Made by a program: the position numbers and the translations under genes. Below the pieces are notes generated by a model. That model saw nothing but the letters and a program-made list of their open reading frames with translations, did not search any database and was not told the origin of the DNA. 52,405 nt of DNA from a virus. Lineage: Duplodnaviria; Caudoviricetes. This document shows positions 21,929 to 47,971 of the stretch, piece by piece. The stretch covers positions 1 through 52,405 of IMG/VR virus record IMGVR_UViG_3300033153_004539; one strand, 5' to 3'. Positions within the stretch are counted from its first letter, which is position 1. The number at the start of each line of letters is the position of its first letter.

Positions 21929-22464
21929 TTAAGCACTAACTGTATAAGTAATCTTCAACTGATCACCATTTGATACTGGTACAGCAGCAGCAAACAGAGC
22001 AGTCGCAATACACCATTAACAGTAGCAGAACCAGTAATATTAAATGTAGCAGCAGTACCATTAGTAGTGCTTTGAGAGGCAGCAACAGCACTACCCCAAG
22101 CTACACGTGTACCTTCACTATAGGTTGTAAATTCATTCCAACCAGAGGCACTTGACATAGTGTCAGTATCATTTAGACCAGTATAACCACTGGAGTCAAT
22201 AAGACCAATGAACCAACTATTGTTAGCTGTCTGAACACCATCATTAAACATGTCATCGAGGATTTTGTCTTTGCCCTCATTGACAATACCGTTAGGCATA
22301 GAGTAACGGCCTTTAATTCTACCGTCTTTATCTAAGTGCTCAATATCAAATCGACCTTTAGGTTCTAACTGATTCTTTGCACCTTGGATCTTTTCGACCT
22401 TGCCACTTGCCTTAACAAGTTCCACACCAACATTACTTTTAAAAGCAGCTTTTGTACCAGCCAT
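21929..22464 (-). pseudogene. small fibre-subunit-type virion protein, frameshifted near 22007
   Basis: The ORF ends in implausible residues; another frame reads ATALFAAAVPVSNGDQLKITYTVSA* to 21929, a typical C-terminus for this protein type. Confidence 0.7.
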
Positions 22465-30273: not shown

Positions 30274-31689
30274 TTAACCAATTAATGCTGCACCGTAAGC
30301 AGTGTTAAGAACCTTAACACCTAACAGAACATCAACTGTCACAAGAACACCCTGCGAGGAACCATTATAAGTAATGGTGATACGGATACCAACACCACCC
30401 ATATTAGCTGTGGAACTAATAGCAAGACCAGCAGGAGCCGGAGCTAATGGTCGACTGACAAGAGCAATAGCATTCTTATGGAATGCAAAGTTAACGTCAG
30501 CAGGAGGACTGAACAGAACCACATCATTATCAGTAACAGCAACATCTAACGAACGATTAAGAGTGATACCAGTCGTGTTAGTTGCGGTATCAGTAACAGC
30601 AATAACACTGTAAACACCACTCAAGATAACATTAGGTGTGCCAACAGTGGCAAAACTAACTAAAGTACCTACTGGAATAGAACCAACGATACCGTCTACA
30701 GTCATTTCCTTATTATAACCGACAGCATAATCGTCACTATCATCAATAAGACCTGTATCACCAATGGTAACAACATCATCATCAGCAATAGCAACCCGTA
30801 ATCCAGGACTGATAGTAACATCAATATCCTGAGTAGCTAATGTACCAAGAGTAGTAACCTGGTGAAGGACACCACCAATAGTAATCCACTGACCAACAGC
30901 AAATTGATCACCAGCAGTATCACAGTGAATAACTGTGTCACCAATATCATAACCAGCAGTAAGATCAACAAGTGCTGTAACAGCAGTAACAGGTACTCCA
31001 GTAGAACTAGGAGCATTCTGGCACATAAACATATTAAACTGCAACTTACGTCCTAAGGACGCTTCACGCATTGCAGTACCTTCATCACCAATCTTATCAG
31101 CACTAATGAACAAGTCAAGATTAAGTGCAGTAGATTCAGTCGTAGGACTAAGAATTAAGTTACGACCTGCCTCTGGGCACTTATTGATATTCATCCTCTT
31201 ACGAGTTTCAAGGATGTACTGCTTAATGTTAGCAGAGGTTAATCCACCAGCAATACCTTCCTGGTTGGCAGTAAATTGATACGCACAACCTAAGATAATC
31301 TTATCAACAGCCTGAGCGATTGAAAGAACAGCAGGCTCAAGATACTCGTCACGCAACTGCTTGAAAGACTTACTCTCTTCACCATCCTTAATCATAAAGG
31401 ACGTATGAAGATGCTGATCCAGAGGAATCTGAATATCAGTTGCATCTGCATCCTGAACAGTAACAGCATCAGCATTAGTCTTACGCTTAGCAGTAAATTC
31501 TGCTGGTTGACGTGTATGGACAATATCGCCAAAATTGGCAACCAGTGGCGAAAAATCCTTATGAACAAGGTTACCAACAACCATGTTTTCAGTAAGGATA
31601 GCTACAGACTCATTCGCCCATAATTCAGGAATATAGGCGTCAAGACTATTAGCATACACTAACTTAAAAGGCTTAGAAAACTTTAACAT
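30274..31689 (-). CDS. major capsid protein, P22 coat-like HK97 fold with insertion domains
   Basis: YIPELWANE, FGDIVHTRQP, AFHKNAIALVSRPL, DVLLGVKVL; follows the scaffold gene. Confidence 0.9.
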   Translation of the reverse strand: MLKFSKPFKLVYANSLDAYIPELWANESVAILTENMVVGNLVHKDFSPLVANFGDIVHTRQPAEFTAKRKTNADAVTVQDADATDIQIPLDQHLHTSFMIKDGEESKSFKQLRDEYLEPAVLSIAQAVDKIILGCAYQFTANQEGIAGGLTSANIKQYILETRKRMNINKCPEAGRNLILSPTTESTALNLDLFISADKIGDEGTAMREASLGRKLQFNMFMCQNAPSSTGVPVTAVTALVDLTAGYDIGDTVIHCDTAGDQFAVGQWITIGGVLHQVTTLGTLATQDIDVTISPGLRVAIADDDVVTIGDTGLIDDSDDYAVGYNKEMTVDGIVGSIPVGTLVSFATVGTPNVILSGVYSVIAVTDTATNTTGITLNRSLDVAVTDNDVVLFSPPADVNFAFHKNAIALVSRPLAPAPAGLAISSTANMGGVGIRITITYNGSSQGVLVTVDVLLGVKVLNTAYGAALIG

Positions 31690-32524: not shown

Positions 32525-33292
32525 CTAAGAAACCCTACTTAATTCAATAGCCTGAGGATCACACAAATAAGGCTTTAAATGTATCCAAGCTTCCGCACTA
32601 GGTATACCAGCCCTAATATACTCAGCCACAAAGGACGCATCGTAGGTAGAATGTGTCCCTAGATATTTGTTTTGAGTAATACCAATTGATTCGATTTCGT
32701 CCTGCATATCCACATCATCAAGATACTTTAAAGAACATTCGTATGCTGCAAGTTCTAAGTCGAGTGGAACAACAGTATCAACACCCCGTGGAAATTGTAA
32801 AGACTGATCTTCATCGGTTTTTACCCCTGCAAAATTTAATCGATCAATAGCACGGGTAGCCATGATCAATGCTTTTTGCCTATCGTTAGCTAATGCTACC
32901 TCCCATGGGTCAGAGTTAAGACGTTGACTACCAAAATACAAATTAGCTCCAGTTATTGATCCATAGTAAGATATACTTCCTACTATACTACTTACACCAG
33001 TTATATAACTATAATCTGGATCATCAACTGTGGCAATTGTAAATTGTGCTGGTACTGCTTCTATATGTGTAAACAGTAATCCTATAATATCCCCATCCAT
33101 CTCAGCAGATGTTAAAGCAATTGACCATTGACCATTACCTTCATGTACTGCTGAATTAGTTAATGATTGTTGAACACCACCGTCAATAGTCACAAAGCCA
33201 TTAACAGTACCATTAAGTATAGCCGACCCATCCGACCTACTTATTAAGGCAAAAGTGAAACCATTAACAGATTTACCTTTTTCAAAACTCAT
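32525..33292 (-). CDS. head-tail adaptor (DnaT-like) fused to an N-terminal Ig/BppU-like domain
   Basis: C-terminal half YGSITGANLYF..W..KALIMATRAID..QSLQFPR; N-terminal ~90-aa beta domain GNGQWSIALTSAEMD. Confidence 0.7.
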   Translation of the reverse strand: MSFEKGKSVNGFTFALISRSDGSAILNGTVNGFVTIDGGVQQSLTNSAVHEGNGQWSIALTSAEMDGDIIGLLFTHIEAVPAQFTIATVDDPDYSYITGVSSIVGSISYYGSITGANLYFGSQRLNSDPWEVALANDRQKALIMATRAIDRLNFAGVKTDEDQSLQFPRGVDTVVPLDLELAAYECSLKYLDDVDMQDEIESIGITQNKYLGTHSTYDASFVAEYIRAGIPSAEAWIHLKPYLCDPQAIELSRVS

Positions 33293-36200
33293 TGTTCTTG
33301 CTCACCAGTTACGAGTCTGTTTAAGTCCTTAGCGTAACTTGCTTTCCAACCAGGTATAACTTCATCAGTTATACTACCTGACATGTTAGCAGAGGATCCA
33401 AAAGATACACTTAAGCCTCTAGTTATTTTTGTTGCTAATGTAACTGTTCCAGTACCATCGAAACCAGTTGTAAAAGCTTTATCGATATTTACAAAAGATG
33501 TAACGGTAGCTGTACTAACAAAAGCAGCAGCGAGAGACTGACTGAAACCTAAATTAGCTGTTAATGTACCTGTGCTATTTATTGCAATATTAAGTGGCTT
33601 ACTACCACTTAACCTTGCTGTCATAGTTCCGAAGGAACTTACAGCAAAAGATAATTGTTTATTTACTCTTAAATCTGCTGCCATACTGCCAGAGGCAGTT
33701 ATACTAGCAAAGAAACCTTCACTTGTTTTTAAAGCAGCTGTTACTGTAGCAGTTGACGTTATTGCAGCAACTAATGCTTTAGTAGCTGTAATATTAAAAT
33801 CAGCTGTTATAGTAGCAGAAGCAACTATACTTGTAGATAAAGCGGCTTTGTTTAATACTAATTCTGCCGTCATATTAGCGGCAGCAATGATAAACGCACC
33901 TAAAGGTTGCGTGGCACCTGATCTAACCCAAGCTGTCACAGTACCAGTAGAAATTATATCTGTTGATAAGGCGGCTTTATTATAATTTAAGGAACCAGTT
34001 AATATTCCGCTAGAAGTTATAGAAACATTAAAGTATTTAAAATTACCTGCATCTAACGATGCTACCATTACACCAGTAGCATTTATAGCAGCAGTTAATC
34101 CTCTAGTTCTATTTAAGTCCCCCGTCAAGGAACCAGTAGAAATTATAGCAGCAACTAACTGATGTGTTTCACCCTTAGTAACATCAGCCGTTAAGAAACC
34201 AGTAGAACTTATAGCAGCAGTTAGGCCCCTAGTTCTTTCTAAATCTGCCGTCAGAGTACCAGTTGAAGTTATAGCAGCAGTAAGTGTTTGCGTACCACCT
34301 GTAGTTATATCTCCCGTAAGGGAACCAGTAGAAGTTATATCAGCAGCAAACTGCTTTACTCTGTTAAGGCTACCAGTTAACAAACCACTTGAAGTTATAT
34401 TAGCAGATAAGGCTGCTTTATTAAGTGTAAGGTCACCAGTTAATAAGCCATTAGAAGTTACATGGAGATTGAAATTTTTAGAATTACCAGCATCAAGGTC
34501 TGCTGTCATAGTACCAGAGGCAACTATGTCAGCAGCAAACTGTTCTGTTTTACTTAAAGTACCTGTTAAAGTACCACTGGAAACTATAGCAGATGTAAAT
34601 GTTTTCTCTACATCTAAGTTACCAGTTAAAGTACCAGTAGAAGTTATATCAACAGATAATGACTGTATACCACCTGTAGTAATATCTGCTACTAAAGTAC
34701 CAGTGGAAGTTATATCAGTAGTAAATTGTTTTATTCTGTTAAGATTACCAGTTAATAAGCCACTGGAAACTATAACAGATGTTAATCCCCTAGTTCTTTC
34801 AATATCAGCAGTTAAAGTACCAGTAGAAGTTATATCAGCAGCAAGTGCTTTAGATGCTGTTGTAGTAATATCTGCTACTAAAGTACCAGTAGAAGTTATA
34901 TCAGCAGCAAACTGCTTTATACGGTTAAGGCTACCAGTTAATAAGCCATTGGAAATTATATCAGCAGATAGGGCTGCTTTATTAAGTATTAAGTCCCCAG
35001 TTAATAAGCCACTGGAAGTTATATGTAGATTAAAGTTTTTAGAATTACCAGCATCAAGATCAGCTACTAATGTACCAGTAGCATTTATTGCAGCAGCTAA
35101 TTGTCTAGTTCTAGTTAAATCCCCAGTTAATAATCCACTAGAAACTATGGCAGATGCAAATGTTTTCTCTACATTTAAAATACCAGTTAAAGTACCAGTA
35201 GAAGTTATATCAGCAGCAAGTGCTTTAGCTGCACCTTTAGTTACATCTCCCGTCAAGGTTCCAGTTGAAGTTATATCAGTAGCAAACTGTCTAGTTCTAT
35301 ATAAATCCCCAGTTAATAAGCCACTAGAAGTTATAGCAGATGATAAAGCTGCTTTATTATAATTTAAATCAGCAGTTAAAGTTCCACTGGAAGTTATATC
35401 AGTAGTAAGTGCTTCTATAACAGCAGCAATAGTGACATCAGCTGTCATTAAGCCACTAGAAACTATACTTGTTATAAAGAATTTTCTAGGATCAACATAT
35501 ATAACCTCGACACCTAATTGAGTTACTCTTGCTTTAGGCGTACCGTAGTCTAAGCGTATGACTTCGACCGCTTGTTGAGTGACTCTGGCCTTAGGTGTAC
35601 CAACATTTAAATATACTACTTCAGAACCTTGTTGTGTTAAGCGAGCCTTAGCTACACTATCTCTACTTAAATCTCCTGTTAGTAAGCCTGAACCAGTAAA
35701 ATCAGCAGCTAATTGATGTGTTGCATTTTCCCACAGATTAGCAGTTACTACACCTGAGCCAGTAAAATCAACAGAAAGAGCCTCTATAACCTGACCCTGT
35801 TTTTGTAGATCAGCTGTTACTAACGCTGAACCAGTTATAGCAACAATTAATGGTTCATAATTAGGTATATGAATAACTTCAAGATATTGACCAGTGACTC
35901 TGGCAGTAGTTGTTTCTGTTACTGTATAAATAACTTCAAGGGGTAAGTGCGTTACCCTAAGGTGATTACTCTCAGCAATAAATTTTGTAATATCAGCAGT
36001 TACTAAGGCGGTTGAAGTTATAGCAGCAGATAGTGCTACTTCATAATTTAGATTCCCCGTCAGGGAGGCGGTTGAAATTATATCAGATGTAAGACCTCTA
36101 GTTCTTTTGTAATCAGCCGTCATAGTGCCAGAGGCAGTTATATCAGCTGATAACGATTCTGTAGAACCTGTTGAAAGATCACCCGTTAATAAAACACTGG

Positions 36201-37404
36201 AAGTTATATCAGCAGTTAATTGTCTTTCTCTAGTTACGTCAGCCGTTAAAGTACCAGAGGCAACTATAGCAACTGATAATGATCTAGTTCTTTTTACATC
36301 ACCCGTTAATAAGGCACTGGAAGTTATATTAGAAGTTAATGTTTTAGTTGCACCTGCATTAATATCAGCAGTTACTAAAACATTTGAAGTTATATCTGAA
36401 GTTAAATACCTAATTCTTTTAGAATCAGCTGTTAAAGTACCAGAAGCAACTATAGCAGTAGTTAAGCCTTTATATCTTTTTACATCAGCTGTCATAGTTC
36501 CTGAAGAAACTATATCAACTAAAAGGTACTCTGTTATTATCTCTGATAGGTCAGCCGTTACAGTAGCAGTAGATGTTATATCAGAAGCTAATTGTCTTTC
36601 CCTATACAATAAAGCTGCCATATTACCACTGGCAACTATGTCAGATGTGAACTGACATTTTCTACCAATGTTGGCTACCATTAAGACATTAGAAGTTATA
36701 TCAGTTGTTACACCTCTGATTCTTTTTACATCTGCTGTTACTAAGCCTGAACCAGTTACAGCAGCAACTAATTGCTCTGTTACTGGTTCATCTGCTTCCT
36801 TAAATGATATACCAATTAAGCCCCAGTCATCAGCAGAAATATTAAAGCCTACGGCTTTGCTACCTGCTGTACCACCATCTAAATCATACTCAGTGCCCCA
36901 TACCTGATTACCGGCATCATAAGTATGGACTAATGTATAATTTGTACCCGCCGTAGGCGGAGTACGGTAGCCATGGCCTAATCCACCATATATAAGAGCA
37001 TTATCAACAACCGTCAGGTTAAGTGTTGGGTTAGCTGTAGTACCTGTGGCACTATTAGAATTATCATAAGCTGCTGTTTTTAATGTAGCTACATCAAAAG
37101 AAGTAATACTTGCTTGAATATTGAGTAAGCCTGTGTTAGGTATACTTAATGTATTTGAACCAGTTGATGGCTCAATAACATACCATACCTCAACACCTGC
37201 TTCAATTGATACTTGGAAACCTTGGCCACTATCGACCATTGGTAAAGAGTTATAGGTGGGAGCCCCACCTGCACGTGCTACAGCATTACGGATAAAAATA
37301 GTCAATACAAGTAGCTTACAACTGCTACCACACGAATGTGTGGTATCATTTGGGTTAGCAGCACCATAAGTGCCCTGCGTACTTGTATCAACAGTAAAAG
37401 CCAT
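33289..37404 (-). CDS. long repetitive fibre scaffold protein (N-terminal ~200-aa globular domain + about 45 repeats of 21-24 aa)
   Basis: Repeat (L/F)xxxITS(S/T)GxLT(A/G)xL across most of 1371 aa; repeat count estimated by eye. Confidence 0.75.
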   Translation of the reverse strand: MAFTVDTSTQGTYGAANPNDTTHSCGSSCKLLVLTIFIRNAVARAGGAPTYNSLPMVDSGQGFQVSIEAGVEVWYVIEPSTGSNTLSIPNTGLLNIQASITSFDVATLKTAAYDNSNSATGTTANPTLNLTVVDNALIYGGLGHGYRTPPTAGTNYTLVHTYDAGNQVWGTEYDLDGGTAGSKAVGFNISADDWGLIGISFKEADEPVTEQLVAAVTGSGLVTADVKRIRGVTTDITSNVLMVANIGRKCQFTSDIVASGNMAALLYRERQLASDITSTATVTADLSEIITEYLLVDIVSSGTMTADVKRYKGLTTAIVASGTLTADSKRIRYLTSDITSNVLVTADINAGATKTLTSNITSSALLTGDVKRTRSLSVAIVASGTLTADVTRERQLTADITSSVLLTGDLSTGSTESLSADITASGTMTADYKRTRGLTSDIISTASLTGNLNYEVALSAAITSTALVTADITKFIAESNHLRVTHLPLEVIYTVTETTTARVTGQYLEVIHIPNYEPLIVAITGSALVTADLQKQGQVIEALSVDFTGSGVVTANLWENATHQLAADFTGSGLLTGDLSRDSVAKARLTQQGSEVVYLNVGTPKARVTQQAVEVIRLDYGTPKARVTQLGVEVIYVDPRKFFITSIVSSGLMTADVTIAAVIEALTTDITSSGTLTADLNYNKAALSSAITSSGLLTGDLYRTRQFATDITSTGTLTGDVTKGAAKALAADITSTGTLTGILNVEKTFASAIVSSGLLTGDLTRTRQLAAAINATGTLVADLDAGNSKNFNLHITSSGLLTGDLILNKAALSADIISNGLLTGSLNRIKQFAADITSTGTLVADITTTASKALAADITSTGTLTADIERTRGLTSVIVSSGLLTGNLNRIKQFTTDITSTGTLVADITTGGIQSLSVDITSTGTLTGNLDVEKTFTSAIVSSGTLTGTLSKTEQFAADIVASGTMTADLDAGNSKNFNLHVTSNGLLTGDLTLNKAALSANITSSGLLTGSLNRVKQFAADITSTGSLTGDITTGGTQTLTAAITSTGTLTADLERTRGLTAAISSTGFLTADVTKGETHQLVAAIISTGSLTGDLNRTRGLTAAINATGVMVASLDAGNFKYFNVSITSSGILTGSLNYNKAALSTDIISTGTVTAWVRSGATQPLGAFIIAAANMTAELVLNKAALSTSIVASATITADFNITATKALVAAITSTATVTAALKTSEGFFASITASGSMAADLRVNKQLSFAVSSFGTMTARLSGSKPLNIAINSTGTLTANLGFSQSLAAAFVSTATVTSFVNIDKAFTTGFDGTGTVTLATKITRGLSVSFGSSANMSGSITDEVIPGWKASYAKDLNRLVTGEQEQ

Positions 37405-38273
37405 TACACTAAGATTGCTCTCTTAGTTGTTAATTCGTAATCAAACTCTTCCATCATCTCACTATGGTCTTCCTCGATTTTAGTCACTTGCTCCTTAGTT
37501 AATATGTCTTTCCATTGATTAGCTTTGCCAACTCTAAAGAATTTACCACTTGCACTATTTTCACTTAACTCTGCGAAACCATTCTCTTCCTCATGTTTAC
37601 GTAAGTTCTTAAAAGTGTTTTCTTTAATAGCAAAATCTAATCTATCTTGGTCAACTGGCATAGTTAAGAATTGTATTACTTTTGTAAATTCTTCATGTGG
37701 CTTATCTAATAAGTCTTCAAATTTTAATACTAATGTTTTAATATTTTCATTAAGTTTGGTCCATGTCTTAACATGCTCTGACCAAGTTAAAAGTATGTGA
37801 TGTAAGTTATCTTTATTTTTAAGTGCAAATTTTATGTTACACATATGGGCAATAGCTTCATCAATATCTTCACCCAAATGATCAGCAAAACTAACAGCAA
37901 TATCTCTTGGGTCTCTGACAAGATATACTGCCCCTCTACTCAACTGAAATGGGCAAACAGGAATATCATTGACAGCTATTTTCGCATGATGTGTTTTTAA
38001 TACTATATCTCTTGTAGCATAGACATTAAGGAAATTAAGTAAGGTCGCTGGTCTATAATATGATTGCTCTTCAAATGTCATCCGATCTAACGGTCTGGCA
38101 CAAGTTATTTGTACAACCTGTGAAGTTAAATCGTTATATGCAAACTGGAAAGCACTATTAATGTCAATAGGGAAACCAGACACATAAGAATTAATAAACA
38201 TACGCAACCAAGTATTACCACTTTTAGGGTAACTAGCGAACCACCATATTTTTCTTTCTGACGGATGGATCAT
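37404..38273 (-). CDS. PAPS-dependent sulfotransferase
   Basis: 5'-PSB SYPKSGNTW, KTHH, 3'-PB RDPRDIAVS, FFRVGKANQWK. Confidence 0.92.
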   Translation of the reverse strand: MIHPSERKIWWFASYPKSGNTWLRMFINSYVSGFPIDINSAFQFAYNDLTSQVVQITCARPLDRMTFEEQSYYRPATLLNFLNVYATRDIVLKTHHAKIAVNDIPVCPFQLSRGAVYLVRDPRDIAVSFADHLGEDIDEAIAHMCNIKFALKNKDNLHHILLTWSEHVKTWTKLNENIKTLVLKFEDLLDKPHEEFTKVIQFLTMPVDQDRLDFAIKENTFKNLRKHEEENGFAELSENSASGKFFRVGKANQWKDILTKEQVTKIEEDHSEMMEEFDYELTTKRAILV

Positions 38274-39049
38274 AAATACTTACAACCTTTCATTGTTTTA
38301 CCGTGATGTTCCTCAATAAGCTTAGTTTGTTTCTTTGTTAGATACTTTTTCCATTGATTCGCCTCACCCATTCTAAAGAAATTACATGCCCCGCCTCTCT
38401 CGGTGAAACCATTTTCTATTTCTAATTTTTTAAGATTATTGAAACTAGCTTCTTTAATAGCAAATTTTACTCTTTCTTCACTATGTCGCGGTAAATATAA
38501 TACTTTTATTATGGCTTTAAAAGCCGCTTCTGTATGCTCTAGTAAGTCTTCATATTTAAAGCCTTTCAGATTTGTGTTCCACCAAGAGTCTACATGTGTT
38601 GACCAACTACTTAGTACATGACCCATGTTATTAACTTTTGATGATATAAAACACGATTCATCATTCATAAAGTCTATTGCTTCATCTATCTCTATACTAT
38701 AATGTTTAGATAAGCTTATAACTACGTCTCTTGGGTCTCTTATTACGTAAATACCACCATTAGTTTTACTTAAAGGTATTAATCTTTTATCCTTGACTTT
38801 AACATTAGCGTTATGTGTTTTTATACATATGTTTTCTAGCTTACTTATGGACTCATTATAATTACCTAAGTATTCATAAAGATCTTTAGCTTTAGGATGT
38901 AAATCAGGTTGTATATCACTTATTACAAATTGTTTATCGGTATTTATGTCTATTTTCTCACCTGTTAGGTAAGCTAATAGAAACATTCTTACCCAGGTGT
39001 TACCGCTTTTTGGGTAGCTTGCGAGCCACCATATGTTACCAAGTTTCAT
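38270..39049 (-). CDS. PAPS-dependent sulfotransferase (paralogue)
   Basis: SYPKSGNTW, KTHN, RDPRDVVIS, FFRMGEANQWK. Confidence 0.92.
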   Translation of the reverse strand: MKLGNIWWLASYPKSGNTWVRMFLLAYLTGEKIDINTDKQFVISDIQPDLHPKAKDLYEYLGNYNESISKLENICIKTHNANVKVKDKRLIPLSKTNGGIYVIRDPRDVVISLSKHYSIEIDEAIDFMNDESCFISSKVNNMGHVLSSWSTHVDSWWNTNLKGFKYEDLLEHTEAAFKAIIKVLYLPRHSEERVKFAIKEASFNNLKKLEIENGFTERGGACNFFRMGEANQWKKYLTKKQTKLIEEHHGKTMKGCKYL

Positions 39050-39098
39050 ATCAATAACCTAATATCCCTTATTATATTTTTAAATACTGGATACTGGA

Positions 39099-39536
39099 CT
39101 AGGCTAATGTTACAGTAATAGCACCAGTAGTAAATTCAGCAGTGTCACCACTGTCAATAGCTTTACCCGTATCAACAGTAGAGTAGAACCACATTTCACC
39201 AGTATTATAAGTAGCATTATCAACGATAGCACAACTACCTACAGTACCCCAAGAACCAGTAGCTTGCGGATATGTAATAGCGGTAGCATTATCCGTTTGA
39301 CCATCACCACCAGCTGTAGCAGTCCAATTAGCATCAAGTGGAGCTAATGCCTGACGAGCATAGGTATCAGTGGTAACGACTTCAACACCAGTACCAGTAG
39401 TAAAGATAGCGGTATCGCCGTCAATTGGTGTCGTAGTGCACAGTGCTATTGCCACTACTGAAGGCTTTGCGAATGTTGCCGTCCTGAACAGATGGCCGAT
39501 CAATGTGTCTTCCAAATAATCTGACATTTCCGACAT
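39099..39536 (-). CDS. small phage fibre subunit protein
   Basis: MSDYLE..L.HLFR, YARQ, N..AI.YP.ATGSWGTV, GDT..F..GAITVTL pattern widespread in phage fibre loci; AAGGAG RBS. Confidence 0.75.
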   Translation of the reverse strand: MSEMSDYLEDTLIGHLFRTATFAKPSVVAIALCTTTPIDGDTAIFTTGTGVEVVTTDTYARQALAPLDANWTATAGGDGQTDNATAITYPQATGSWGTVGSCAIVDNATYNTGEMWFYSTVDTGKAIDSGDTAEFTTGAITVTLA

Positions 39537-39969
39537 TTGTAATCTCCTTCTCAGAGTTTTCAGGGTGTTGGTCTAAAACAAAATCGGGACTCAATTTACC
39601 AAGCTCGATGGCTGCTTTGGCCCGTTTTACAAAAGTTTGTATTGTCACCCCATACAACCAAACTCTTATAGGTTCGACCGTAGCATCAACATAAATTTTT
39701 CTTTTATCACCCACTGGTTCACCAATAAGCAAACTAGCATGTGCATATCTGAGAATATGTGATTTAAACATCTCCTCTTCAGTGACATCCATTTTACCAT
39801 GTATGACATGTGTCCCATCAGTATAAAAAGTTATTTTTTTACCTAATATTCTACAAGTAGCCAATACATTTGCTTTACTACCTTCAGAAACATCACCTTG
39901 ATGTCTTAATAACCTCTTCATCATTAAGGAAGGCTTCATATGTGCTACAAATTGTTTTACTTTAGCCAC
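39421..39969 (-). CDS. hypothetical basic protein
   Basis: 182-aa ORF with AAGGAG RBS; 116-nt overlap with the downstream gene. Confidence 0.55.
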   Translation of the reverse strand: MAKVKQFVAHMKPSLMMKRLLRHQGDVSEGSKANVLATCRILGKKITFYTDGTHVIHGKMDVTEEEMFKSHILRYAHASLLIGEPVGDKRKIYVDATVEPIRVWLYGVTIQTFVKRAKAAIELGKLSPDFVLDQHPENSEKEITNVGNVRLFGRHIDRPSVQDGNIRKAFSSGNSTVHYDTN

Positions 39970-41296
39970 TTAATTGTACTCCTTCAAATTCTAAGTCTAT
40001 TTCTACTTGAGGTCCACAAACTGCACCTCTTCTTGGTTGGTTGAAACTTAATGGATTAGTTATTAAGAACACTCTCCAAATTTCACCCTCCCAAGTTGTA
40101 AGTTTCATACTATGGCCATTATGTTGTTTTAAGAAGTATTCAAACTCAAGCCCTTTGTTTCTAGTCATACTGAAAGTGTAAGTCAACCTACGACTAGTAT
40201 TATATTTTATATATGTTCTCTTAACACCATTCATGCTTTTCTTTAATAATAAATCTGATACAATATTTTCTGTATTACCAACTAAAGGCTTAGGTAAAGT
40301 TATTACGTGTTCTGGTCCCTCAAAAGGTGACTGAAGAGTCATGTACTCATTCAGTAATGTGCCTATTGCAACCTGGTTAAAAGTTAATAGACTAGTTGCA
40401 CTTCTATCACCTTGCGTAGTAAGCAAAACATCTAAAGTACCTGTACCAGTAAAACTTACAGAAAAATTAGAATCAGCAGTATACGTTACATCTTGGGTGA
40501 GATTTAAAGTATTACTTGCTACACCTGGTAAATAATCTACTGAACCTTCTGCTAGGTGGGTGAAATTTAAAACACTGAATACTGGTCGTGAAGGATCAAC
40601 ATCCTGTAATAAAACTAAAGTATTGTCAGCTACTTTATTATATAACTTACCGCCTACAGCTAACTGACTAAGAAGTAATACATTAGATGCACTTACATCA
40701 GTTGCTCTACCTACAGATACTTCATCACTAAGTGATAGAGTATTTGAAGGTGTAACATTAAATACATTCTCTGTTGTTACATCTTGTGTAAGCTGTAGTA
40801 AGTTACCTGGGTACTGTTCAGGTACTAATATTGCTTGTAAATTACCTGTACCTACAAAGTCTACTGCGAACTGTACAGCACCTGCTCTTGATAAATTAGC
40901 AGTAACTACCGCATTAGAATAAAAACCTACAATAAAACTACCAGTCAAATCCTCTGTAGAATGTATAACCTCAATATATTGACCAGTGACTCTGGCTGTA
41001 GAATCTATGTTATATGTATAAATTACCTCAAGAGGTAAATGAGTTACACGTAAGTGGTGACCTTCAGTTAAAGTTAAATCTGCTGTTAAAAAAGCTGTAG
41101 CATTAATATTTGCTACTAAGCCTTTACGGCTATCTACATATATTACTTCAGTACCTAGTTGTGTTACTCTTGCTTTAGGTGTACCACTCCTTAAAAGTAT
41201 AACCTCATTACCTTGTTGAGTAAGGCGAGCATTAGGGGTGCCGGTATCTAAATAGATAACCTCTACACCCTGTTGTGTAAGACGTGCTGTCGCCAT
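39962..41296 (-). CDS. repeat scaffold protein carrying three repeat classes plus a distal-tail-like C-terminal domain
   Basis: ARLTQQGVEVIY-type x5, ITS/GTG-type and SNTLxLTQ-type repeats; C-terminal TTWEGEIWRV domain. Confidence 0.7.
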   Translation of the reverse strand: MATARLTQQGVEVIYLDTGTPNARLTQQGNEVILLRSGTPKARVTQLGTEVIYVDSRKGLVANINATAFLTADLTLTEGHHLRVTHLPLEVIYTYNIDSTARVTGQYIEVIHSTEDLTGSFIVGFYSNAVVTANLSRAGAVQFAVDFVGTGNLQAILVPEQYPGNLLQLTQDVTTENVFNVTPSNTLSLSDEVSVGRATDVSASNVLLLSQLAVGGKLYNKVADNTLVLLQDVDPSRPVFSVLNFTHLAEGSVDYLPGVASNTLNLTQDVTYTADSNFSVSFTGTGTLDVLLTTQGDRSATSLLTFNQVAIGTLLNEYMTLQSPFEGPEHVITLPKPLVGNTENIVSDLLLKKSMNGVKRTYIKYNTSRRLTYTFSMTRNKGLEFEYFLKQHNGHSMKLTTWEGEIWRVFLITNPLSFNQPRRGAVCGPQVEIDLEFEGVQLSG

Positions 41297-41304
41297 TCCA
41301 GACC

Positions 41305-42348
41305 TTACGCAGTTATCTCAATACCAAACTCAGCAGCATTAACATCAGATTCAGTCCACGCAACAGCTGTATCGGGGTTAAGTTCCCACATACTAGTTAA
41401 AAATTGATATTCAGCATCAGAAGGTATTAAAGTATCACCCTGGTAATTTGTACTACTTATTCTTGTTAAAGCCTTAAATTCTCTTGTACCAGGGACATCT
41501 TTTTTAACTGTAGAGACAACCTGTACACCTGCTACTGAAGATATAGTACCTGTAAGTGCTTCATAATTAAATAAGTCAACATCAGATATATTATCTGATT
41601 CTACATAAGTTGTATCACCATCATTAGGCTCTTCATCAACTAATAGATAATTATCAACACTATTACCATCTGACCCAGAAAAATCACTAGTAGTTCCATT
41701 GCTGTCAGGCATTATTGTTTCAATATTCAACATACCTATAAAATCAGACCATGTGCCTGATCCAGTATCATCCCAAATAACTAAAGAATCTAAATAAGTA
41801 TAAGTACCGTGACCATTATAGGTGAAACTGTGAATAATACCTGCTGATGCACCGTAATTAGTGTCTTCACCAGCTATTAAATCTAACCATATTTCACCAT
41901 CAATTTTAACTACACAGTCACCTGTTGAACAAGAATCGGTACTAGTACCCTTTATTTCAAAATGGTGCCAAGTATTTAATGTTAAGCTTTTTATAGAGGA
42001 ACTACCAAGTTGAGCATCAGTATAAGTACTCCAATGAATTTGCCCACTATCTTCTAAAAATAATTTAAAGTAGTATTGACCAGTTGATGATGTTTTAAAC
42101 AAACATAACACATTATCAGTTAAAACAGCGGACCTATACCACCAAAAAGACACAAATAAAGAACCGGTAAATGATGTTGTAAGATATGTGTATGTAACTT
42201 GTTCATTAGTTATAAATCTAATACTAGCCCTACCATTTTTTACAATAGTTGTTTCTATATCAGGTGAAGCAACATAACCCAAACCTCTTTTATTTAAATC
42301 ACTAATAATATCATAAAAGTCAAAGCTATCAGCCAGTAAGAAAGCCAT
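41305..42348 (-). CDS. LamG/concanavalin-like virion protein (paralogue 1)
   Basis: WHHFEIK..KIDG..YLDSLVIWD; C-terminus AWTESDVNAAEFGI. Confidence 0.7.
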   Translation of the reverse strand: MAFLLADSFDFYDIISDLNKRGLGYVASPDIETTIVKNGRASIRFITNEQVTYTYLTTSFTGSLFVSFWWYRSAVLTDNVLCLFKTSSTGQYYFKLFLEDSGQIHWSTYTDAQLGSSSIKSLTLNTWHHFEIKGTSTDSCSTGDCVVKIDGEIWLDLIAGEDTNYGASAGIIHSFTYNGHGTYTYLDSLVIWDDTGSGTWSDFIGMLNIETIMPDSNGTTSDFSGSDGNSVDNYLLVDEEPNDGDTTYVESDNISDVDLFNYEALTGTISSVAGVQVVSTVKKDVPGTREFKALTRISSTNYQGDTLIPSDAEYQFLTSMWELNPDTAVAWTESDVNAAEFGIEITA

Positions 42349-42358
42349 CTTATTCCCC

Positions 42359-43399
42359 TTAAGTTTTCACTTTAATGCCGAATTCCGCAGCATTAACTTC
42401 GGATGGTGTCCAAGCTGTAGCTGTGGCAGGTGATTCTGTCCAAATCTTTTGCATTGCTCTATATGTATCTTGTGCTGAGTTAGCAAGGTCATGATCGTAA
42501 TCTGCTGCACTGATACGTGTTACAGGTACTATTGTTCTGTAATTAATACCTGTTGACCTTCTAGCGACAGTGTTAACACATACAGCATCAATAGTATTGA
42601 CAGAGGCATGTAAATCTTCAAAAGTGTACAAGTCTTTATTGTTTAAGGTACTAGTGCTAACATAAGATGTATCATCATCATATTCTACTTCATCAACCAT
42701 CTCATAATTAGCAGCACCACCTGATCTGGTCCACTGGCTACTGTTGCCTGCTCCATTAACCTTTAATGTGCTAATGTATCTTGGACCCATGAAATCATTC
42801 CATGTTGATCCTTCTGTATCATAAACAATTACATCATCAAAATACATTTGCTGACTTATATTAGCAGCAAGTTGAAAATTATCAAAATATGGACCACCAG
42901 AGTACGCTGTATCAGTTGTAGCTGGTACATTTATAACTTCATTACCATCTACCCTAACGATACAATCATCAGTAGCTATTGAGTCTTTTAAAGTAACTTT
43001 AACTTCAATATAATACCATTTACCATCAGTCATGATCCCTGGGACAGAACTACCTAATGTTGTGTAATTACCACTTACAAAAGATAAAGATCCATCATTA
43101 AAATTAAATTTTAACATCATTTGTATTGTGTCTTTTTGTAGCATTCTACAAAAATAGGTATTAATAACAGGAGAAGTAATAATATATGCCCAAAAAGCAA
43201 TATACGCTGTTTCTTCATAGAATGTATATTTTGGAAGAGCTATTCTATTATTACTGGTTAATTTAACACTTTGTCTACTATGTACACTACATACTACACT
43301 TTCTTCTAAAACTGGCGTCCCAAATGCTGTCATATCACTTTCACTTATATCATCAGCATTAAGAAAATAATCAAAGCCTGTAGCGTAAAGTATGCTCAT
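42359..43399 (-). CDS. LamG/concanavalin-like virion protein (paralogue 2)
   Basis: WYYIEVK..RVDG..YFDDVIVYD; C-terminus AWTPSEVNAAEFGI. Confidence 0.7.
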   Translation of the reverse strand: MSILYATGFDYFLNADDISESDMTAFGTPVLEESVVCSVHSRQSVKLTSNNRIALPKYTFYEETAYIAFWAYIITSPVINTYFCRMLQKDTIQMMLKFNFNDGSLSFVSGNYTTLGSSVPGIMTDGKWYYIEVKVTLKDSIATDDCIVRVDGNEVINVPATTDTAYSGGPYFDNFQLAANISQQMYFDDVIVYDTEGSTWNDFMGPRYISTLKVNGAGNSSQWTRSGGAANYEMVDEVEYDDDTSYVSTSTLNNKDLYTFEDLHASVNTIDAVCVNTVARRSTGINYRTIVPVTRISAADYDHDLANSAQDTYRAMQKIWTESPATATAWTPSEVNAAEFGIKVKT

Positions 43400-44433
43400 A
43401 CTTCTATTTTCACTCCAAACTCAGCCGCATCAAATTCAGACTGTGTCCAAGCTACTGAGGTAGCTGGTGATTCATCCCAAATTTTATTTTCATACCAAGA
43501 CCATGTTGTATTCGTTTCAGTTATAGCTGGCCCGTCATAATTAGTAGAACCTATTCTTGCAAAATGTCTAAAATCTCTTTGATTTGCGAATGACGTACTT
43601 CTTGTTCTTGATTTTAAATTAACACCTAAAATAGTAACAGATGATTCACTTATATCTTCATATTCATAAGAGTCTCTTTCATCAACGATACCTGATTCAA
43701 CATATGTTGTATCATTATCTACGTTGCCTATATCATCAACCATTAAATAATTTGTACCACCTGATGTACTAAATTCACTATAATTACCTGACGCATTAGG
43801 TACTCGCATTTCAACAAAAGCTTCCCCTGCAAGGGAATCATTATACCCACTTTGATTATCCATCATTATGATATTATCATAATATAACCTAGTGTATGTG
43901 CCAGCGTGGTGAAATCTTACATAACGCAATGTTTCATCAGCAGAATCAGCAGTATCAGTTGTAGCAGCTAAATTAAGTACCTCATTACCATCTACTTTAA
44001 TAATACAATCATTAGTGCTTATAGAATTAGATATAGTCATTTCTATTTCTATATAATGCCATACATCCTCATCTATTTTAAAATCTGATGTACCTAATAT
44101 TGTCGAACCTCTTTTAAATTGTAATTGTCTCTTACCAGTTATAGTCCATGAAGATTGTAATACATTTGAAATATTATAAAATGATATAAGATCATTATTA
44201 ATATGTCTATAATCAAAATACACATGAAATTGAATAAATATTTTACTATTAGCTATAGCTGAACCTTTATCATATACACCATAATAAGTATCAGATGATG
44301 AAGCTATACCAGAATATGTTCCAGTTTTCACCTCTGTAACACTTGAAGTTATAGATGTTCCAGAATAAGTAGACCAAGTCCTATTACTAAATGCACCACC
44401 TATATCAAAACTTTGTGTGAAAAGCAAAGACAT
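43396..44433 (-). CDS. LamG/concanavalin-like virion protein (paralogue 3)
   Basis: WHYIEIE..KVDG..YYDNIIMMD; C-terminus AWTQSEFDAAEFGV. Confidence 0.7.
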   Translation of the reverse strand: MSLLFTQSFDIGGAFSNRTWSTYSGTSITSSVTEVKTGTYSGIASSSDTYYGVYDKGSAIANSKIFIQFHVYFDYRHINNDLISFYNISNVLQSSWTITGKRQLQFKRGSTILGTSDFKIDEDVWHYIEIEMTISNSISTNDCIIKVDGNEVLNLAATTDTADSADETLRYVRFHHAGTYTRLYYDNIIMMDNQSGYNDSLAGEAFVEMRVPNASGNYSEFSTSGGTNYLMVDDIGNVDNDTTYVESGIVDERDSYEYEDISESSVTILGVNLKSRTRSTSFANQRDFRHFARIGSTNYDGPAITETNTTWSWYENKIWDESPATSVAWTQSEFDAAEFGVKIEV

Positions 44434-46254
44434 TTACTTACCCTCCCCACGGGAATCATCTTGTGGGACGATGCCTTTCATCTGACTATCATCTTTTTCA
44501 CTTCTTGAGGCATTGGATATTCCTCCGAGTTCCGGAGTGCCGCGAGCTTGAGATTGTGATTCCGCAATACGCTTAATTCGGTCAGCATGATCTGTTTTGG
44601 CTTTTTCAACTTCATCGTCTGGATACGTCTTTGCCTGGCTTGCTGAGTCAAGGCTAATTAATCCTTGTTCTATGTCTTTGGATAATGTGTCAGAGTCAGA
44701 AAATACAATTTTAGCAGCATCAATCTCTTTGTTAATTTCTTCTAATGTCTCATTAGATACATCTGAGCCTATGCTAAGCTCTACAGCTTTTTTAAGTGCT
44801 TCCTTCTTATAAGTTATTGAGGGAACTACTTCAGCAGTTTCTAAAAGCTTACTTGCCTCTTCTCTCTTATCCTTATCCGTTTTTATATGGTATTTCTTTG
44901 GGTAAACAATAGTGGGTAACTTGCCACTTTTATCTTTGTACCAAGTCCAATATTTAGCTATGCTTCTTTCACCATGCTCTAATTCAATACCAATATAGCT
45001 CAATCCTGCCTCTAGTGAGCGTTCGTCATACCCTTTACTCTCAGCTGAAGCCATTTTAGGCTGAATATTTGTTACTGCTAAGTTAATAAGTAGACGTATG
45101 TCTTTTTTGATATCTTCCTGTTTCTTCATTGAAGCCAGTAAAGGCTCAGGAGATGGATGTATAAAAACTGGATAATCGAGATCTTTTGGTACTCTCCGAC
45201 CGGAGACTACACCAAGTGTTATCTCTTTATTTTCACCTACAGCAGCCTGTTCAGCAGAACCAGGTCTGACTATAGACACACCGTCACTTTGTGTTGTATT
45301 ACCTGGTGTAGCTGTACGAGCCCAGACATTATCTACTCTTGGGTCATATTTTTCAGCATAAAAAGCATAATTACTCTTTAATGAATAAGCCACATCACTT
45401 GATGACATATTCATAAGAGCAATTTGGTAGTTTGAGACATCAGCTAACAAACTTTCTGTTATCTCAAACTGAACAAAAGGTATTGACGGTAGATTTAAGG
45501 TTATTATATCTATACCTAGCTCACCGAACCTATCTATAGGCTTTGACTCTTCATCAAAAAACTGAACTAAAGTTACACCGTCTTTAACCCACATTAAGCG
45601 GTACCGCTCAACATAAGCTGTAGGTAAGAAGCAATTTTCGTTAGTTTTATACGTGTGGTCCCTTAGTAAAAGGGCTTTAAACTCTGCACCATCTGCTGTT
45701 GTATCTGTGGCCCAGTTTAAAATGTCTTCAGCCGGGTAAGAGTATAAATATGGCCTAGCAAGTGACGCATCTTTAATTGTGGATCCACGTAGCATAGGCA
45801 TATCTACAAATACGCCTATTTTCTGCATAGCTAATAACTCAGGTAGGATTATACGTCCTACATAGCTATTCATAGTGCTACCAATAAGGTCTACACCACC
45901 ACTCTTACCTAAAATAGCCTCTTGGTAACTATCTACACCACCTAATCTTGTAACATCCGGTACACGTTGGAAAATAGAGTTTTTAATATCACTTAACCCT
46001 GCTTTAGCAAAAGCAGTAGAGTAAGTCATAGCCTTACGACTGGCAAAATCATCATCGCTTTCACGTTTGCTGAATTTTTCCAGATATTGATCAATAAAAT
46101 CGTCACCACTCTTTTTTACTGCCCGCCACTTGTACCAATTATCTACGTTAGCCTCATACTCAGGGTGGAGCATAGTGCTTATGTCATTATTACATGACTC
46201 TAACACTTGATCTACATCAAACGCACCTAAAGTGCGAAGTTCGTCTACTGCCAT
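44434..46254 (-). CDS. portal protein
   Basis: 606 aa directly after TerL; HPEY, RPYLYSYPAEDILNW, IPFV motifs (DUF4055/SPP1-like portals). Confidence 0.85.
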   Translation of the reverse strand: MAVDELRTLGAFDVDQVLESCNNDISTMLHPEYEANVDNWYKWRAVKKSGDDFIDQYLEKFSKRESDDDFASRKAMTYSTAFAKAGLSDIKNSIFQRVPDVTRLGGVDSYQEAILGKSGGVDLIGSTMNSYVGRIILPELLAMQKIGVFVDMPMLRGSTIKDASLARPYLYSYPAEDILNWATDTTADGAEFKALLLRDHTYKTNENCFLPTAYVERYRLMWVKDGVTLVQFFDEESKPIDRFGELGIDIITLNLPSIPFVQFEITESLLADVSNYQIALMNMSSSDVAYSLKSNYAFYAEKYDPRVDNVWARTATPGNTTQSDGVSIVRPGSAEQAAVGENKEITLGVVSGRRVPKDLDYPVFIHPSPEPLLASMKKQEDIKKDIRLLINLAVTNIQPKMASAESKGYDERSLEAGLSYIGIELEHGERSIAKYWTWYKDKSGKLPTIVYPKKYHIKTDKDKREEASKLLETAEVVPSITYKKEALKKAVELSIGSDVSNETLEEINKEIDAAKIVFSDSDTLSKDIEQGLISLDSASQAKTYPDDEVEKAKTDHADRIKRIAESQSQARGTPELGGISNASRSEKDDSQMKGIVPQDDSRGEGK

Positions 46255-46315: not shown

Positions 46316-47971
46316 TTATACTGGACTCTGGATTGTTTCAGACTTGCCAACACTAACAGTAAGTGGTAATGCTATCTCAGAATAGGTACGGGCATGTGCT
46401 AAATGGTCGTTAGATGACCCTGCTTTCACGTACTTGCCTACTGGGTTACCGTCAGCGTCTTTTTCATACACTCTAACAGGGGATTTGATGTGTTCTTTAT
46501 ATTCCATACTTAAATCAACTGGTAGACTTATCATTTTATTTCTAAAACGACCTAACGACAAATCTAACCAACTTGTTCTGTCGACTGTTAAAGTTAATTC
46601 GTCCTCAGAGTGGATATTTATATTTTTACCTTGAATTCCACGACCATAAAAGCACATTCTTACTCTACCCCAGAACTTTTGGGCAAATTCATACGCTTTA
46701 CGCCTCTCAGGTTGTATGTCTATTACACACCCTTGCACCTGATAACGGTACATAAGGTCTTCAAGCTCTTCAAAAGTGGCAACTTTACCTTCAGCTATCA
46801 ATTGACACTTACTTTCAGTGTTTACATCAATAGCATTAGGATGTATATGCCACTTGTCTATTTCATAATGTAACCAAGTGCCAACATCCACACCCATTGT
46901 TACAAGACCACTGTCATTCTCGGCAAATTTACCATAACTACCGATACATTGATTAATATCTTTATCAGTTACTCGTGCCCCCTCTACTACATGGGGCAAA
47001 CCAAGCTTGGAATTGTAAAACTCTTGCTCGTCCGCTGGGTTGACCCTGGCTTTAAAGTATAATTCTATAAAAGTACCAGGTGAGACTGTGGGAGAATACA
47101 TCTGATTGATGTGAAAACCGCGAATATTGCGGCTTTTATGTGCGGGAACCCATTCTGCTGAAGCTAACCACTCATGTTTTGTCTCATGATCTAGTTTCAT
47201 GTTACATTTATGACATTTTATATATGATTTATGTATACTTATATCATTAATGTCTTCGCCAACAATTTCAAAGTTATCTGGGAACTTTAATTGTATTTGT
47301 CTTGAACAATGTGGGCAAGGGAAAAAGAACTCTTCTTGTGTACTTTGATTAAAAGTCTCATTAATACCCCAACCATCAACAGTTGGTGTACTTATCTCCC
47401 ATGTCTTCTTAATAACTTGCCCTGATTGACGTTCTCTGGCTAAGGGTACATTTTCTTGATTCATTTCATCTTTTTCATCAAGAATAAGTACACCAACCGG
47501 CACAGATTTTAAGCCAGCTCTACTTTTTGATCCACGAATATACAAATTCGTGTTACCTGCTCGCTTATGCCCTACATTTTTCACGTCGGAAAATAGTTTT
47601 TCCAAATGTGGTGACATATCGATAGCGGGATCAAAACGAGCAGCACTAAAATCACTAGCATCGGGGGTTTTTGCGGGTAGTACATAAAGGCAGTCCAGAC
47701 CATGTACGTCTATATAAAAGAATACTATATTTAGGACACACTCAGTGAAACCCATCTGAGCTGCTTTTTGTCCTACATTATAGTCTGTTGCCGAATCGTG
47801 CATCCCCCTTAACCAAGGATGATATTTAAATCTCCACGGTCCAGGAAAAGGTTGTCCCATTTTCCTGTAATTCTCTGCCCACTTACTTGGTTGTGTAATA
47901 GTTTTACGTATTAAGCCAGAGCTTAAACTCTCATTAAATAGTCGGATAAGTTCATGATTATAATCAATCAT
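46316..47971 (-). CDS. terL: terminase large subunit, lambda gpA-like
   Basis: QKAAQMGFTE Walker A, LILDEKDEM Walker B, ISTPT, CPHC..CHKC zinc module, GVDVG nuclease motif. Confidence 0.93.
   Translation of the reverse strand: MIDYNHELIRLFNESLSSGLIRKTITQPSKWAENYRKMGQPFPGPWRFKYHPWLRGMHDSATDYNVGQKAAQMGFTECVLNIVFFYIDVHGLDCLYVLPAKTPDASDFSAARFDPAIDMSPHLEKLFSDVKNVGHKRAGNTNLYIRGSKSRAGLKSVPVGVLILDEKDEMNQENVPLARERQSGQVIKKTWEISTPTVDGWGINETFNQSTQEEFFFPCPHCSRQIQLKFPDNFEIVGEDINDISIHKSYIKCHKCNMKLDHETKHEWLASAEWVPAHKSRNIRGFHINQMYSPTVSPGTFIELYFKARVNPADEQEFYNSKLGLPHVVEGARVTDKDINQCIGSYGKFAENDSGLVTMGVDVGTWLHYEIDKWHIHPNAIDVNTESKCQLIAEGKVATFEELEDLMYRYQVQGCVIDIQPERRKAYEFAQKFWGRVRMCFYGRGIQGKNINIHSEDELTLTVDRTSWLDLSLGRFRNKMISLPVDLSMEYKEHIKSPVRVYEKDADGNPVGKYVKAGSSNDHLAHARTYSEIALPLTVSVGKSETIQSPV

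Follow-up and report, generated by a model that had tools for sequence, protein, structure and literature searches.

The closest described counterparts of the system considered here are the chain-like fibres of podophages. According to the report describing them (PMC13730344), each dimer of a small bead protein forms an augmented β-sheet with the fibre-dock domain of a rope protein. By the same account, the rope of Ralstonia podophage GP4 is encoded separately and carries five dimers (PDB 8JOU), and in Pseudomonas podophage A1002 the nozzle-rope gp39 carries dimers of both gp40 and gp41, that is, two bead types (proteins of 147 and 171 amino acids, aa) on one rope, with 11 dimers in a chain of ~300 Å. 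The A1002 dimers sit on residues 243-468 plus 42 more (~268 residues), which corresponds to ~22-24 rope residues per dimer (PMC13730344). Here we analyze an 11-kb fibre block that lies between the portal and head-tail adaptor genes of the virus record IMGVR_UViG_3300033153_004539, all 52,405 bases of which constitute the window (54 listed open reading frames, ORFs; G+C content ~36%; completeness estimate 56%; nearly all genes on the minus strand). We put at roughly 60% the probability that this locus specifies a modular fibre system built by peptide docking, in which three kinds of ~20-residue units, denoted classes A, B and C, each recruit a different folded subunit. The units would be carried by long, largely unfolded scaffold segments.

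The general principle has a familiar parallel in donor-strand complementation of chaperone-usher pili, where a short strand of one polypeptide completes or augments the β-sandwich of another. The pilus proteins are unrelated to those of the contig and polymerize head to tail, whereas many sockets along a multi-tag scaffold are proposed here. The repeats, family memberships, folds and co-occurrences reported below are direct results, from which we infer all binding, stoichiometry and positions in the virion.

Class A units and the two bead proteins are encoded by the following genes, in addition to two scaffold proteins (p444 and p423) listed further below:

33289-37404, minus strand: rope protein, 1371 aa, with an N-terminal domain of 210 aa that is variable, class A units (~50), class C inserts and a conserved C-terminal tail
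39099-39536, minus strand: bead protein 1, 145 aa, Gp80 family (PF23140, E = 9.9e-30; PDB 8jou_a, E = 2.3e-5)
21955-22464, minus strand: bead protein 2, 169 aa, Gp80 family, most like A1002 gp41, frame broken
29189-29731, minus strand: neck-region protein, 180 aa, with one C-terminal class A unit (~29192-29254)
19693-20622, minus strand: 309-aa protein, N-terminal domain globular, C-terminus with three class A units (19696-19872)

Strict patterns for the three repeat classes were scanned over six-frame ORFs of 100 aa or more. They match five ORFs only, and in 200 shuffles per protein the mean number of strict matches for the matched proteins does not exceed 0.01; the repeats reported by the initial annotation are therefore present at the places given there far beyond chance. 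Strict class A matches number 39 in the rope, three in the 309-aa protein, one in the 180-aa protein and one in p444. With a looser pattern, 46 units spaced by 20-24 residues are found in the rope, and four gaps of 40-43 residues hold, by eye, one degenerate unit each, which brings the total to ~50. These units of 20-22 residues make up ~77% of the rope, so that class A indeed accounts for most of the 1371-aa protein. They are arranged in three blocks (residues 216-475, 523-585 and 647-1350), separated by two longer gaps that correspond to class C inserts, and the periodicity is also visible in DNA (periods of 63, 126 and 186 nt detected by TRF).

Bead 1, the 145-aa protein for which the initial annotation had proposed a role as the class A subunit, matches the profile PF23140 ('Podophage GP4 fiber I protein gp80' in Pfam) over its full length with 103.9 bits against a cut-off of 27. 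It is the probable partner of class A units: its family has a solved architecture, the unit period matches that of the solved rope, and an ORF with a period of 20-21 residues lies within 10 kb in nine of 11 IMG/VR loci that encode a relative of bead 1, the two others being contigs that end just after the bead gene. Four of the 11 loci (L003-L006) are syntenic with the contig. Because of the family membership and the matching period, the class A part is best supported, by analogy, as the already published chain-like fibre design, here on a siphophage and with a much longer rope. Each class A unit would bind a dimer of bead 1, as in GP4 and A1002, and ~50 sites on the rope would give a bead chain far longer than the solved ones with five or 11 dimers. 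If all sites are occupied and the chain is as extended as that of A1002, it would exceed 100 nm. A point that counts against this reading is that the rope itself has no sequence similarity to any solved chain in a search of PDB sequences.

Threonine-, serine- and glycine-rich β-repeats are common in fibre shafts, so the repeat proteins might instead be self-assembling shafts (trimeric β-helices or β-solenoids), with the small proteins acting as chaperones or being unrelated minor virion proteins. We find this explanation very improbable. The 145-aa protein belongs to the bead family over its whole length, the class A period equals the bead spacing in A1002, and periodic ORFs accompany the bead gene in most loci; moreover, single class A units end globular proteins, and a self-folding shaft would not explain such tags.

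The distribution of class A units is broader than the rope, for which they had been described initially, since they also occur in p444 and in the 180-aa, 309-aa and 423-aa proteins. In p444 there are three to four class A units and in p423 one degenerate unit at the very end. The 250-aa product of the neighbouring gene (18934-19686) shares the ~240-aa N-terminal domain of the 309-aa protein without its class A units, and the tandem paralogues look like a natural pair of untagged and tagged versions. Searches of the ESM Atlas with the 309-aa protein returned unnamed viral clusters only. Among homologues of the 180-aa protein the tag is variable: one unit in the contig, two in L003 and none in L004 and L005. 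Such patterns suggest that single class A units can serve as terminal tags on ordinary virion proteins. On the neck protein, the 309-aa protein, p423 and p444, these tags would recruit beads as well.

The ends of the rope differ in conservation. Its N-terminal globular domain (residues 1-212) has no conserved counterpart in L003-L006, which have other domains or class C motifs at that position, while the last 41 residues are 44% identical to those of the L003 rope. At the sequence level, this suggests that the distal tip varies and that the proximal anchor is fixed. The rope gene is followed by the adaptor gene, which overlaps its 3′ end; in L006, additional genes are inserted between bead and rope genes (L006:10438-16046), including those for a right-handed β-helix protein (PF13229) and a CEMIP β-helix/G8 protein, possible depolymerases.

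The second small β-rich subunit of the initial annotation, described as a protein of ~178 aa at 21929, turned out not to be one open frame. Compared with homologues in two related records, L043 and L044, the gene has a 46-nt deletion at ~22006/22007; the frame is lost, ~15 residues are missing and the expected C-terminus continues in another frame. The deletion may be genuine, making the gene defective or a pseudogene, or it may stem from misassembly. The intact homologues (L043:1471-2040, 189 aa; L044, 187 aa) reveal the affiliation: PF23140 is matched with E = 1.6e-6 (28.9 bits, cut-off 27), and the 171-aa chain of PDB 44NX/26LA (26la_U) with E = 1.8e-10. Judged by its length and entry, this chain is the second bead of A1002. 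BLAST comparison of bead 1 with the broken bead 2 detects no similarity, and the relation is visible only via the intact homologues.

Comparison with the two solved systems places the locus as follows. Like GP4, it has a Gp80-family bead, a separate rope gene and, as proposed here, beads strung along an extended chain of repeats. Whereas GP4, a podophage, has five dimers, the contig belongs to a siphophage with ~50 units on one rope; in addition, four other virion proteins of the contig are tagged, and it has a second type of bead and a further tag class, the third, for heads of the LamG type. With A1002 the contig shares two bead proteins, a similar number of rope residues per unit (20-22 here) and, putatively, the position of the rope-like segment N-terminal to a domain joining the tail ring. 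That domain is a split nozzle in A1002 and a Dit-like tube-fold domain in the contig, where it ends the arms of p444 and p423; the 1371-aa rope has only a ~40-residue conserved C-terminal tail, encoded beside the adaptor gene. Sites number 11 in A1002, compared with ~50 on the rope and ~6-9 on the arms of the contig, and A1002 has no lectin heads docked by a third motif. All solved chain-like fibres are from podophages, whereas the contig is that of a long-tailed phage; this is a difference in context, not in a structural requirement.

The third tag class and its putative partners involve these features:

43396-44433, minus strand: head paralogue 1, 345 aa (phrog_6368, phrog_2448)
42359-43399, minus strand: head paralogue 2, 346 aa (AlphaFold2 model with predicted local distance difference test score, pLDDT, of 90.4 and predicted template-modelling score of 0.89)
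41305-42348, minus strand: head paralogue 3, 347 aa (phrog_2448, E = 2.9e-22; Laminin_G_3, 18.3 bits, below the cut-off of 27.6)
39962-41296, minus strand: scaffold protein p444, 444 aa, with five class C motifs (40964-41284), class A units, class B units and a C-terminal Dit-like domain
35872-35958, minus strand: class C insert of the rope with THLP and TGQY motifs
35500-35643, minus strand: class C insert of the rope with three motifs of the TQQG type

The three LamG-like paralogues of the initial annotation are real, with the jelly roll modelled for one of them. Their sequence identity is 23-24% for the N-terminal domain and 34-36% for the C-terminal one. In the model of the 346-aa protein, residues 1-210 match lectins, carbohydrate-binding modules (CBMs) and polysaccharide lyases, including receptor-binding modules of phages, with VIA Z values of 17.8-13, and this domain is assigned on the model as a ConA/LamG jelly roll. 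Sequence evidence for LamG is confined to the Laminin_G_3 match in one paralogue, under the cut-off. Clostridial neurotoxin binding domains, which occupy the top Foldseek PDB rows (TM-score ~0.35, root-mean-square deviation (rmsd) of 17-19 Å), were taken to reflect a general jelly-roll likeness and no relationship. The rest of the protein (residues 211-346) is a second β domain and the more conserved half (2.20 versus 1.65 bits per column). BFVD contains full-length structural twins of the 346-aa head from many phage proteomes, and a phage often has several paralogues. Searching PDB sequences with the head alignment identified no solved relative of the family, the only match being LamG-domain chain 9b6m_B, and a search for related loci with the 346-aa paralogue alone gave no relative. 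The lectin-like fibre foot described for roseophage R4C (PMC10276861) is different from this family.

Class C motifs conform to R-[LVI]-T-Q-x3-E-V-[ILV] with a spacing of 17-19 residues, and there are five strict matches each in p444 and the rope. As the initial annotation stated, it is the same five-motif set in three flavours: three TQQG/TQQA/TQLG, one THLP and one TGQY; the order differs between the two proteins. Residues 2-52 of p444 match phrog_13560 (E = 2.1e-6), a family defined by gp316 of phage phiCbK, which itself matches at E = 1.2e-46 over 69 of 69 positions. The 69-aa gp316 consists of three class C motifs and is encoded directly upstream of gp315, a 362-aa member of phrog_2448 that is 30% identical to a head of the contig (E = 2e-20). 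The two genes form an uncharacterized pair that ends the tail module of phiCbK. The likeness thus extends to both partners and their adjacency, whereas in phiCbK the motifs make up a free peptide-sized protein with one flavour and one head gene, and in the contig five motifs of three flavours are present on two scaffolds alongside three heads. No publication that deals with gp315 and gp316, or with recruitment of LamG-type heads by a peptide tag, was found in literature searches, and no relevant solved relative of gp316 was detected among PDB sequences.

Searches across phage genomes, one of the checks proposed together with the original idea, link class C to the head family. With p444 residues 1-58 as a query, tblastn against 50,697 phage records retrieved 11 records, all with phiCbK-like gp316. 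IMG/VR was scanned for two in-frame TQx3EV words 57 nt apart, and adjacent heads were recognized by a hidden Markov model of head alignment A1 (E ≤ 0.001). Of the 20 loci obtained, 14 are open-frame motif tandems, and a head-family gene is adjacent in 12 of these 14, compared with none of ten controls (0/6 chance-like loci and 0/4 loci from a 58-nt out-of-frame scan). The two misses are L040, whose contig starts at the motif and whose twin L036 has a head gene, and L031, in which ~0.8 kb downstream was examined. The carriers are diverse: peptides of 77-93 aa, hub, Dit- or tail-like, repeat and adaptor-like proteins, and a giant protein with internal LamG-like domains. The head gene is their constant neighbour. 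A 595-kb uncultured phage encodes a small ORF with four class C motifs beside two head paralogues, and looser motifs are seen by eye next to head genes in a Mesorhizobium phage (103-aa protein), in TvV S20 (N-terminal part of a hub similar to gene transfer agent (GTA) protein g13) and in Brevundimonas phage Kikimora (C-terminus of a glycine-rich protein). In three loci (L015:6955-8454, L032 and L039), class C-like motifs form the N-terminus of hub proteins that we take, from sequence recognized by eye as DUF2163/BR0599-like, to be GTA-g13-like. GTA-like siphophages may therefore employ the tag at their tail tip, too.

Within the lineage of the contig, numbers of motifs and heads co-vary, as the initial annotation had anticipated for flavours and LamG paralogues: in the contig, three heads accompany five motifs of three flavours; in L003, two heads are found with two motifs, which are present in the p444 homologue as well as in the rope; a single head and some three degenerate motifs occur in L006; and free heads and motifs are both absent from L004. 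Elsewhere the two numbers often differ. In L004, the 792-aa homologue of p444 (L004:7209-9587) has two LamG-like domains fused at its N-terminus and lacks both class C motifs and free head genes, which shows, in sequence comparison, an apparent covalent alternative to docking in the same lineage. A covalent arrangement is also found in Lactobacillus phage J-1, where a CBM2 (PDB 5ly8, a structural neighbour of the head model) is carried by an 'evolved' Dit. The systems are alike in placing jelly-roll sugar modules on a Dit ring; in J-1 the module is inserted covalently, whereas in the contig a separate protein is proposed to be clipped to a peptide tag on the arm.

Physical association was modelled with ESMFold2 using three chains: the 346-aa and 345-aa paralogues, each with its own alignment, and p444 residues 1-135; the 347-aa paralogue was left out. 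The complex scored 0.68 (0.69, 0.63 and 0.68 in individual runs), compared with 0.48 for the best of three controls, and both partner-swap controls scored 0.00. The pass mark is reached by 58 of 80 solved complexes and by two of 110 mismatched pairs, counts that apply only roughly to this case, with its custom alignments and three chains. At least 93% of contacts are the same between runs, and the pLDDT of the partner is at least 47. Only p444 residues 79-115 take part in the interface: the 345-aa paralogue sits on R83-P88 (THLP), contacting it through residues 3-11, 202-212 and 221-343, and the 346-aa paralogue sits on E109-I111 (TGQY). The two sites are equivalent, each made up of the N-terminal strand, the linker between the domains and the C-terminal domain. 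Since there is no solved homologue by sequence, the pass is not a memory of a similar complex. The model supports binding of class C motifs to head paralogues. A motif would insert into a head socket made of the conserved C-terminal β domain and the N-terminal strand, so that p444 and the rope would each display several carbohydrate-binding or carbohydrate-cleaving heads.

Several observations speak against this part of the proposal. The pass is marginal, exactly 0.20 above the best control, which replaced chain 1 only and kept a true paralogue; the fold of the partner is itself uncertain (pLDDT 47-49); and the three TQQG-type motifs are unbound in the model. Conservation of the predicted contact residues does not exceed that of the remaining C-terminal domain (p = 0.62). 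Neither the 347-aa orthologue nor THLP is present in L003, which would pair those two, while the model puts the 345-aa paralogue on THLP. A single head gene goes along with three identical motifs in phiCbK, L030 and L034; in L029, L033 and L036, four to seven motifs, counted by eye, are accompanied by one or two head genes; and podophage VPv81 has a head gene and no class C motif in the DNA examined. The disagreement in numbers and the ordinary conservation of the socket contacts would also fit another explanation, in which class C is a shared anchoring or oligomerization element that zips its carriers together or to the tail, and heads are near only as host-recognition modules. That p444 and the rope share the motif set and, in L003, an identical 35-residue N-terminus fits attachment to a common site. 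We nevertheless regard this explanation as unlikely, given that class C occurs on very different carriers with the head gene as the sole constant neighbour and that the model places two paralogues on two motifs while its partner-swap controls score zero.

Under the preferred reading, in which class C motifs dock the heads, runs of three identical motifs suggest three copies of one head per carrier. The link between class C and the LamG paralogues proposed initially thus gains support from co-occurrence and modelling; its strict form, three flavours for three paralogues, is not established. One flavour per paralogue is at best a tendency, and class C variants may bias which paralogue binds where. 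The order of motifs would then program the position of each module along the fibre, as the initial annotation envisaged.

Class B units occur in two proteins related to Dit, with the following features:

~40367-40804, minus strand: class B region of p444, ~six units
39965-40345, minus strand: Dit-like tube-fold domain of p444 (predicted from a model)
20619-21890, minus strand: Dit-like protein p423, 423 aa, with an N-terminal arm of ~nine class B units, a tube-fold domain and a degenerate class A unit

Four strict class B matches are found in p444 and one in p423, where ~nine looser units are seen by eye. The proteins are paralogous over the class B region and the C-terminal domain (E = 3e-8), and class B was thus correctly placed in both by the initial annotation. 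The model of the C-terminal domain of p444 (pLDDT 83.6, built from 31 sequences) resembles the phiCD508 needle (VIA Z = 10.9, rmsd 4.0, 119 aligned residues), lambda gpM (8iyk_M, Z = 9.3, rmsd 4.0, 105 of 109 residues aligned), p2 Dit (Z = 9.2) and T5 pb9 (Z = 7.8); Foldseek gives E = 1.8e-4. These Z values are moderate, yet the structural matches are uniformly tube, Dit and baseplate proteins, and the predicted domain is accordingly classed with the Dit-like or lambda gpM-like tube fold. No Pfam or PDB sequence match was obtained for the domain, no relevant solved relative for p444 in the PDB sequence search, and no match for whole p444 in tblastn against phages. The p423 gene lies just downstream of the tape measure gene, as Dit genes do, and p444 is instead encoded between the portal and adaptor genes.

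The Dit-like family comprises 2,897 cluster representatives at E ≤ 0.001, with the domain nearly always C-terminal. Among the members listed, 92 of 126 that are at least 300 aa long have three or more class-B-like matches, and at least 14 members start with class C motifs.

What links class B to bead 2 is gene order: tape measure, bead 2 and p423 genes follow one another in the contig as well as in L043 and L044, and in 17 of 21 related loci, a set that includes several near-duplicates, the gene after bead 2 is Dit-like. The assignment of class B to the protein at 21929 made by the initial annotation therefore has conserved gene order in its favour and is not established. From sequence evidence, docking of bead 2 and an arm belonging to the Dit-like protein itself stand at about even odds. 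A specific form of the latter, in which class B is an intrinsic, self-folding arm or stalk that binds no bead, and bead 2 has another docking site, such as class A-like units, falls somewhat short of an even chance in our estimate. It accords with the frequent presence of class-B-like motifs together with the Dit-like domain, which ties class B to the domain itself, with the position of class B-rich p444 next to bead 1 and not bead 2, and with the broken frame of bead 2 in the contig. In addition, some bead-2 loci (L053-L063) encode a bare Dit-like protein of 128-143 aa or arms with few class B matches. Docking, in turn, is favoured by the spacing of class B, which by eye is ~19-21 residues, the same as that of dock units, and by the bead-2 gene directly preceding an armed Dit-like gene in most loci. 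Two bead types also share one rope in A1002 (PMC13730344). In the modular fibre system proposed here, class B units would form the arms of the Dit-like ring proteins p444 and p423, the latter located behind the tape measure, and would likely be docking sites for bead 2, with the ring domains fixing the arms to the tail axis.

A more ambitious version of this reading, which we hold tentatively and consider clearly less probable than not, is a combinatorial peptide-tag code. It would comprise at least three orthogonal pairs of tag and socket (A with bead 1, B with bead 2, and C with the C-terminal domain of the head) as exchangeable parts on almost any virion protein; the pair of class C and head would be widespread and previously undescribed, variants would choose the position of paralogues, and three identical motifs would assemble three copies of a head.

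The remaining features that frame or adjoin the fibre block are:

46316-47971, minus strand: TerL (PHROG and Pfam matches)
44434-46254, minus strand: portal protein (PHROG and Pfam matches)
39421-39969, minus strand: ORF of 182 aa, function unassigned; 40-55% identical ORF at the same place in L003-L006
37404-39049, minus strand: two sulfotransferase genes of the 3′-phosphoadenosine-5′-phosphosulfate type, 259 and 289 aa (PF00685, E = 3e-24 and 7.5e-25)
32525-33292, minus strand: Ad1-like head-tail adaptor with an extra ~100-aa N-terminal domain (phrog_477, E = 1.2e-10; PF20557)
30274-31689, minus strand: scaffold and major capsid protein (PHROG and Pfam matches)
22477-27105, minus strand: tape measure protein, 1542 aa (matches to 15 PHROG tape-measure families)

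The gene order derived from PHROG and Pfam is TerL, portal, fibre block, Ad1-type adaptor, scaffold and major capsid protein; beyond the capsid gene there are a weak head-completion match, the 180-aa protein, further tail genes, the tape measure and distal tail genes. Because a tape measure is present, the contig is, from its gene content, that of a long-tailed phage (siphophage). The adaptor is conserved over its full length in L003-L006, including the extra N-terminal domain, a candidate docking point for the conserved C-terminal tail of the rope.

The 182-aa ORF overlaps the bead-1 gene by 116 nt, and the same overlap is kept in L003-L006; its product may be an assembly factor. Searches of Pfam and PHROGs gave nothing for this ORF, the rope, its N-terminal domain, p423, the 309-aa, 250-aa and 180-aa proteins (p309, p250 and p180) or p876, except for a weak match to phrog_7114 (E = 0.003).

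Both sulfotransferases score well above the PF00685 cut-off of 22 bits (88.2 and 86.3 bits), and one copy is conserved in each of L003-L006. In the unrelated 595-kb phage, a sulfotransferase gene of another family (PF03567; L002:17256-18065) directly follows the two head paralogues. The location of such genes by fibre and head genes hints that fibre parts or a host glycan may be sulfated.

The core of the initial proposal, extended scaffolds with repeats that each dock a matching subunit, is partly supported and appears largely right. As for what is new, the class A part belongs to a known design, which it extends from podophages with 5-11 dimers to a siphophage with ~50 sites. The class C and head pair is apparently undescribed and is newly supported here, and class B may fall on either side. 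If class C is indeed a portable lectin-head tag of ~12 residues, it would explain how host-recognition modules are swapped between unlike phages without re-engineering of the tail, and would provide a function for the unassigned PHROG families phrog_13560 and phrog_2448/6368. The idea would be directly testable in a cultured model phage, phiCbK, through gp316 and gp315, and the tag would offer a simple handle for engineering phage host range in laboratory strains.

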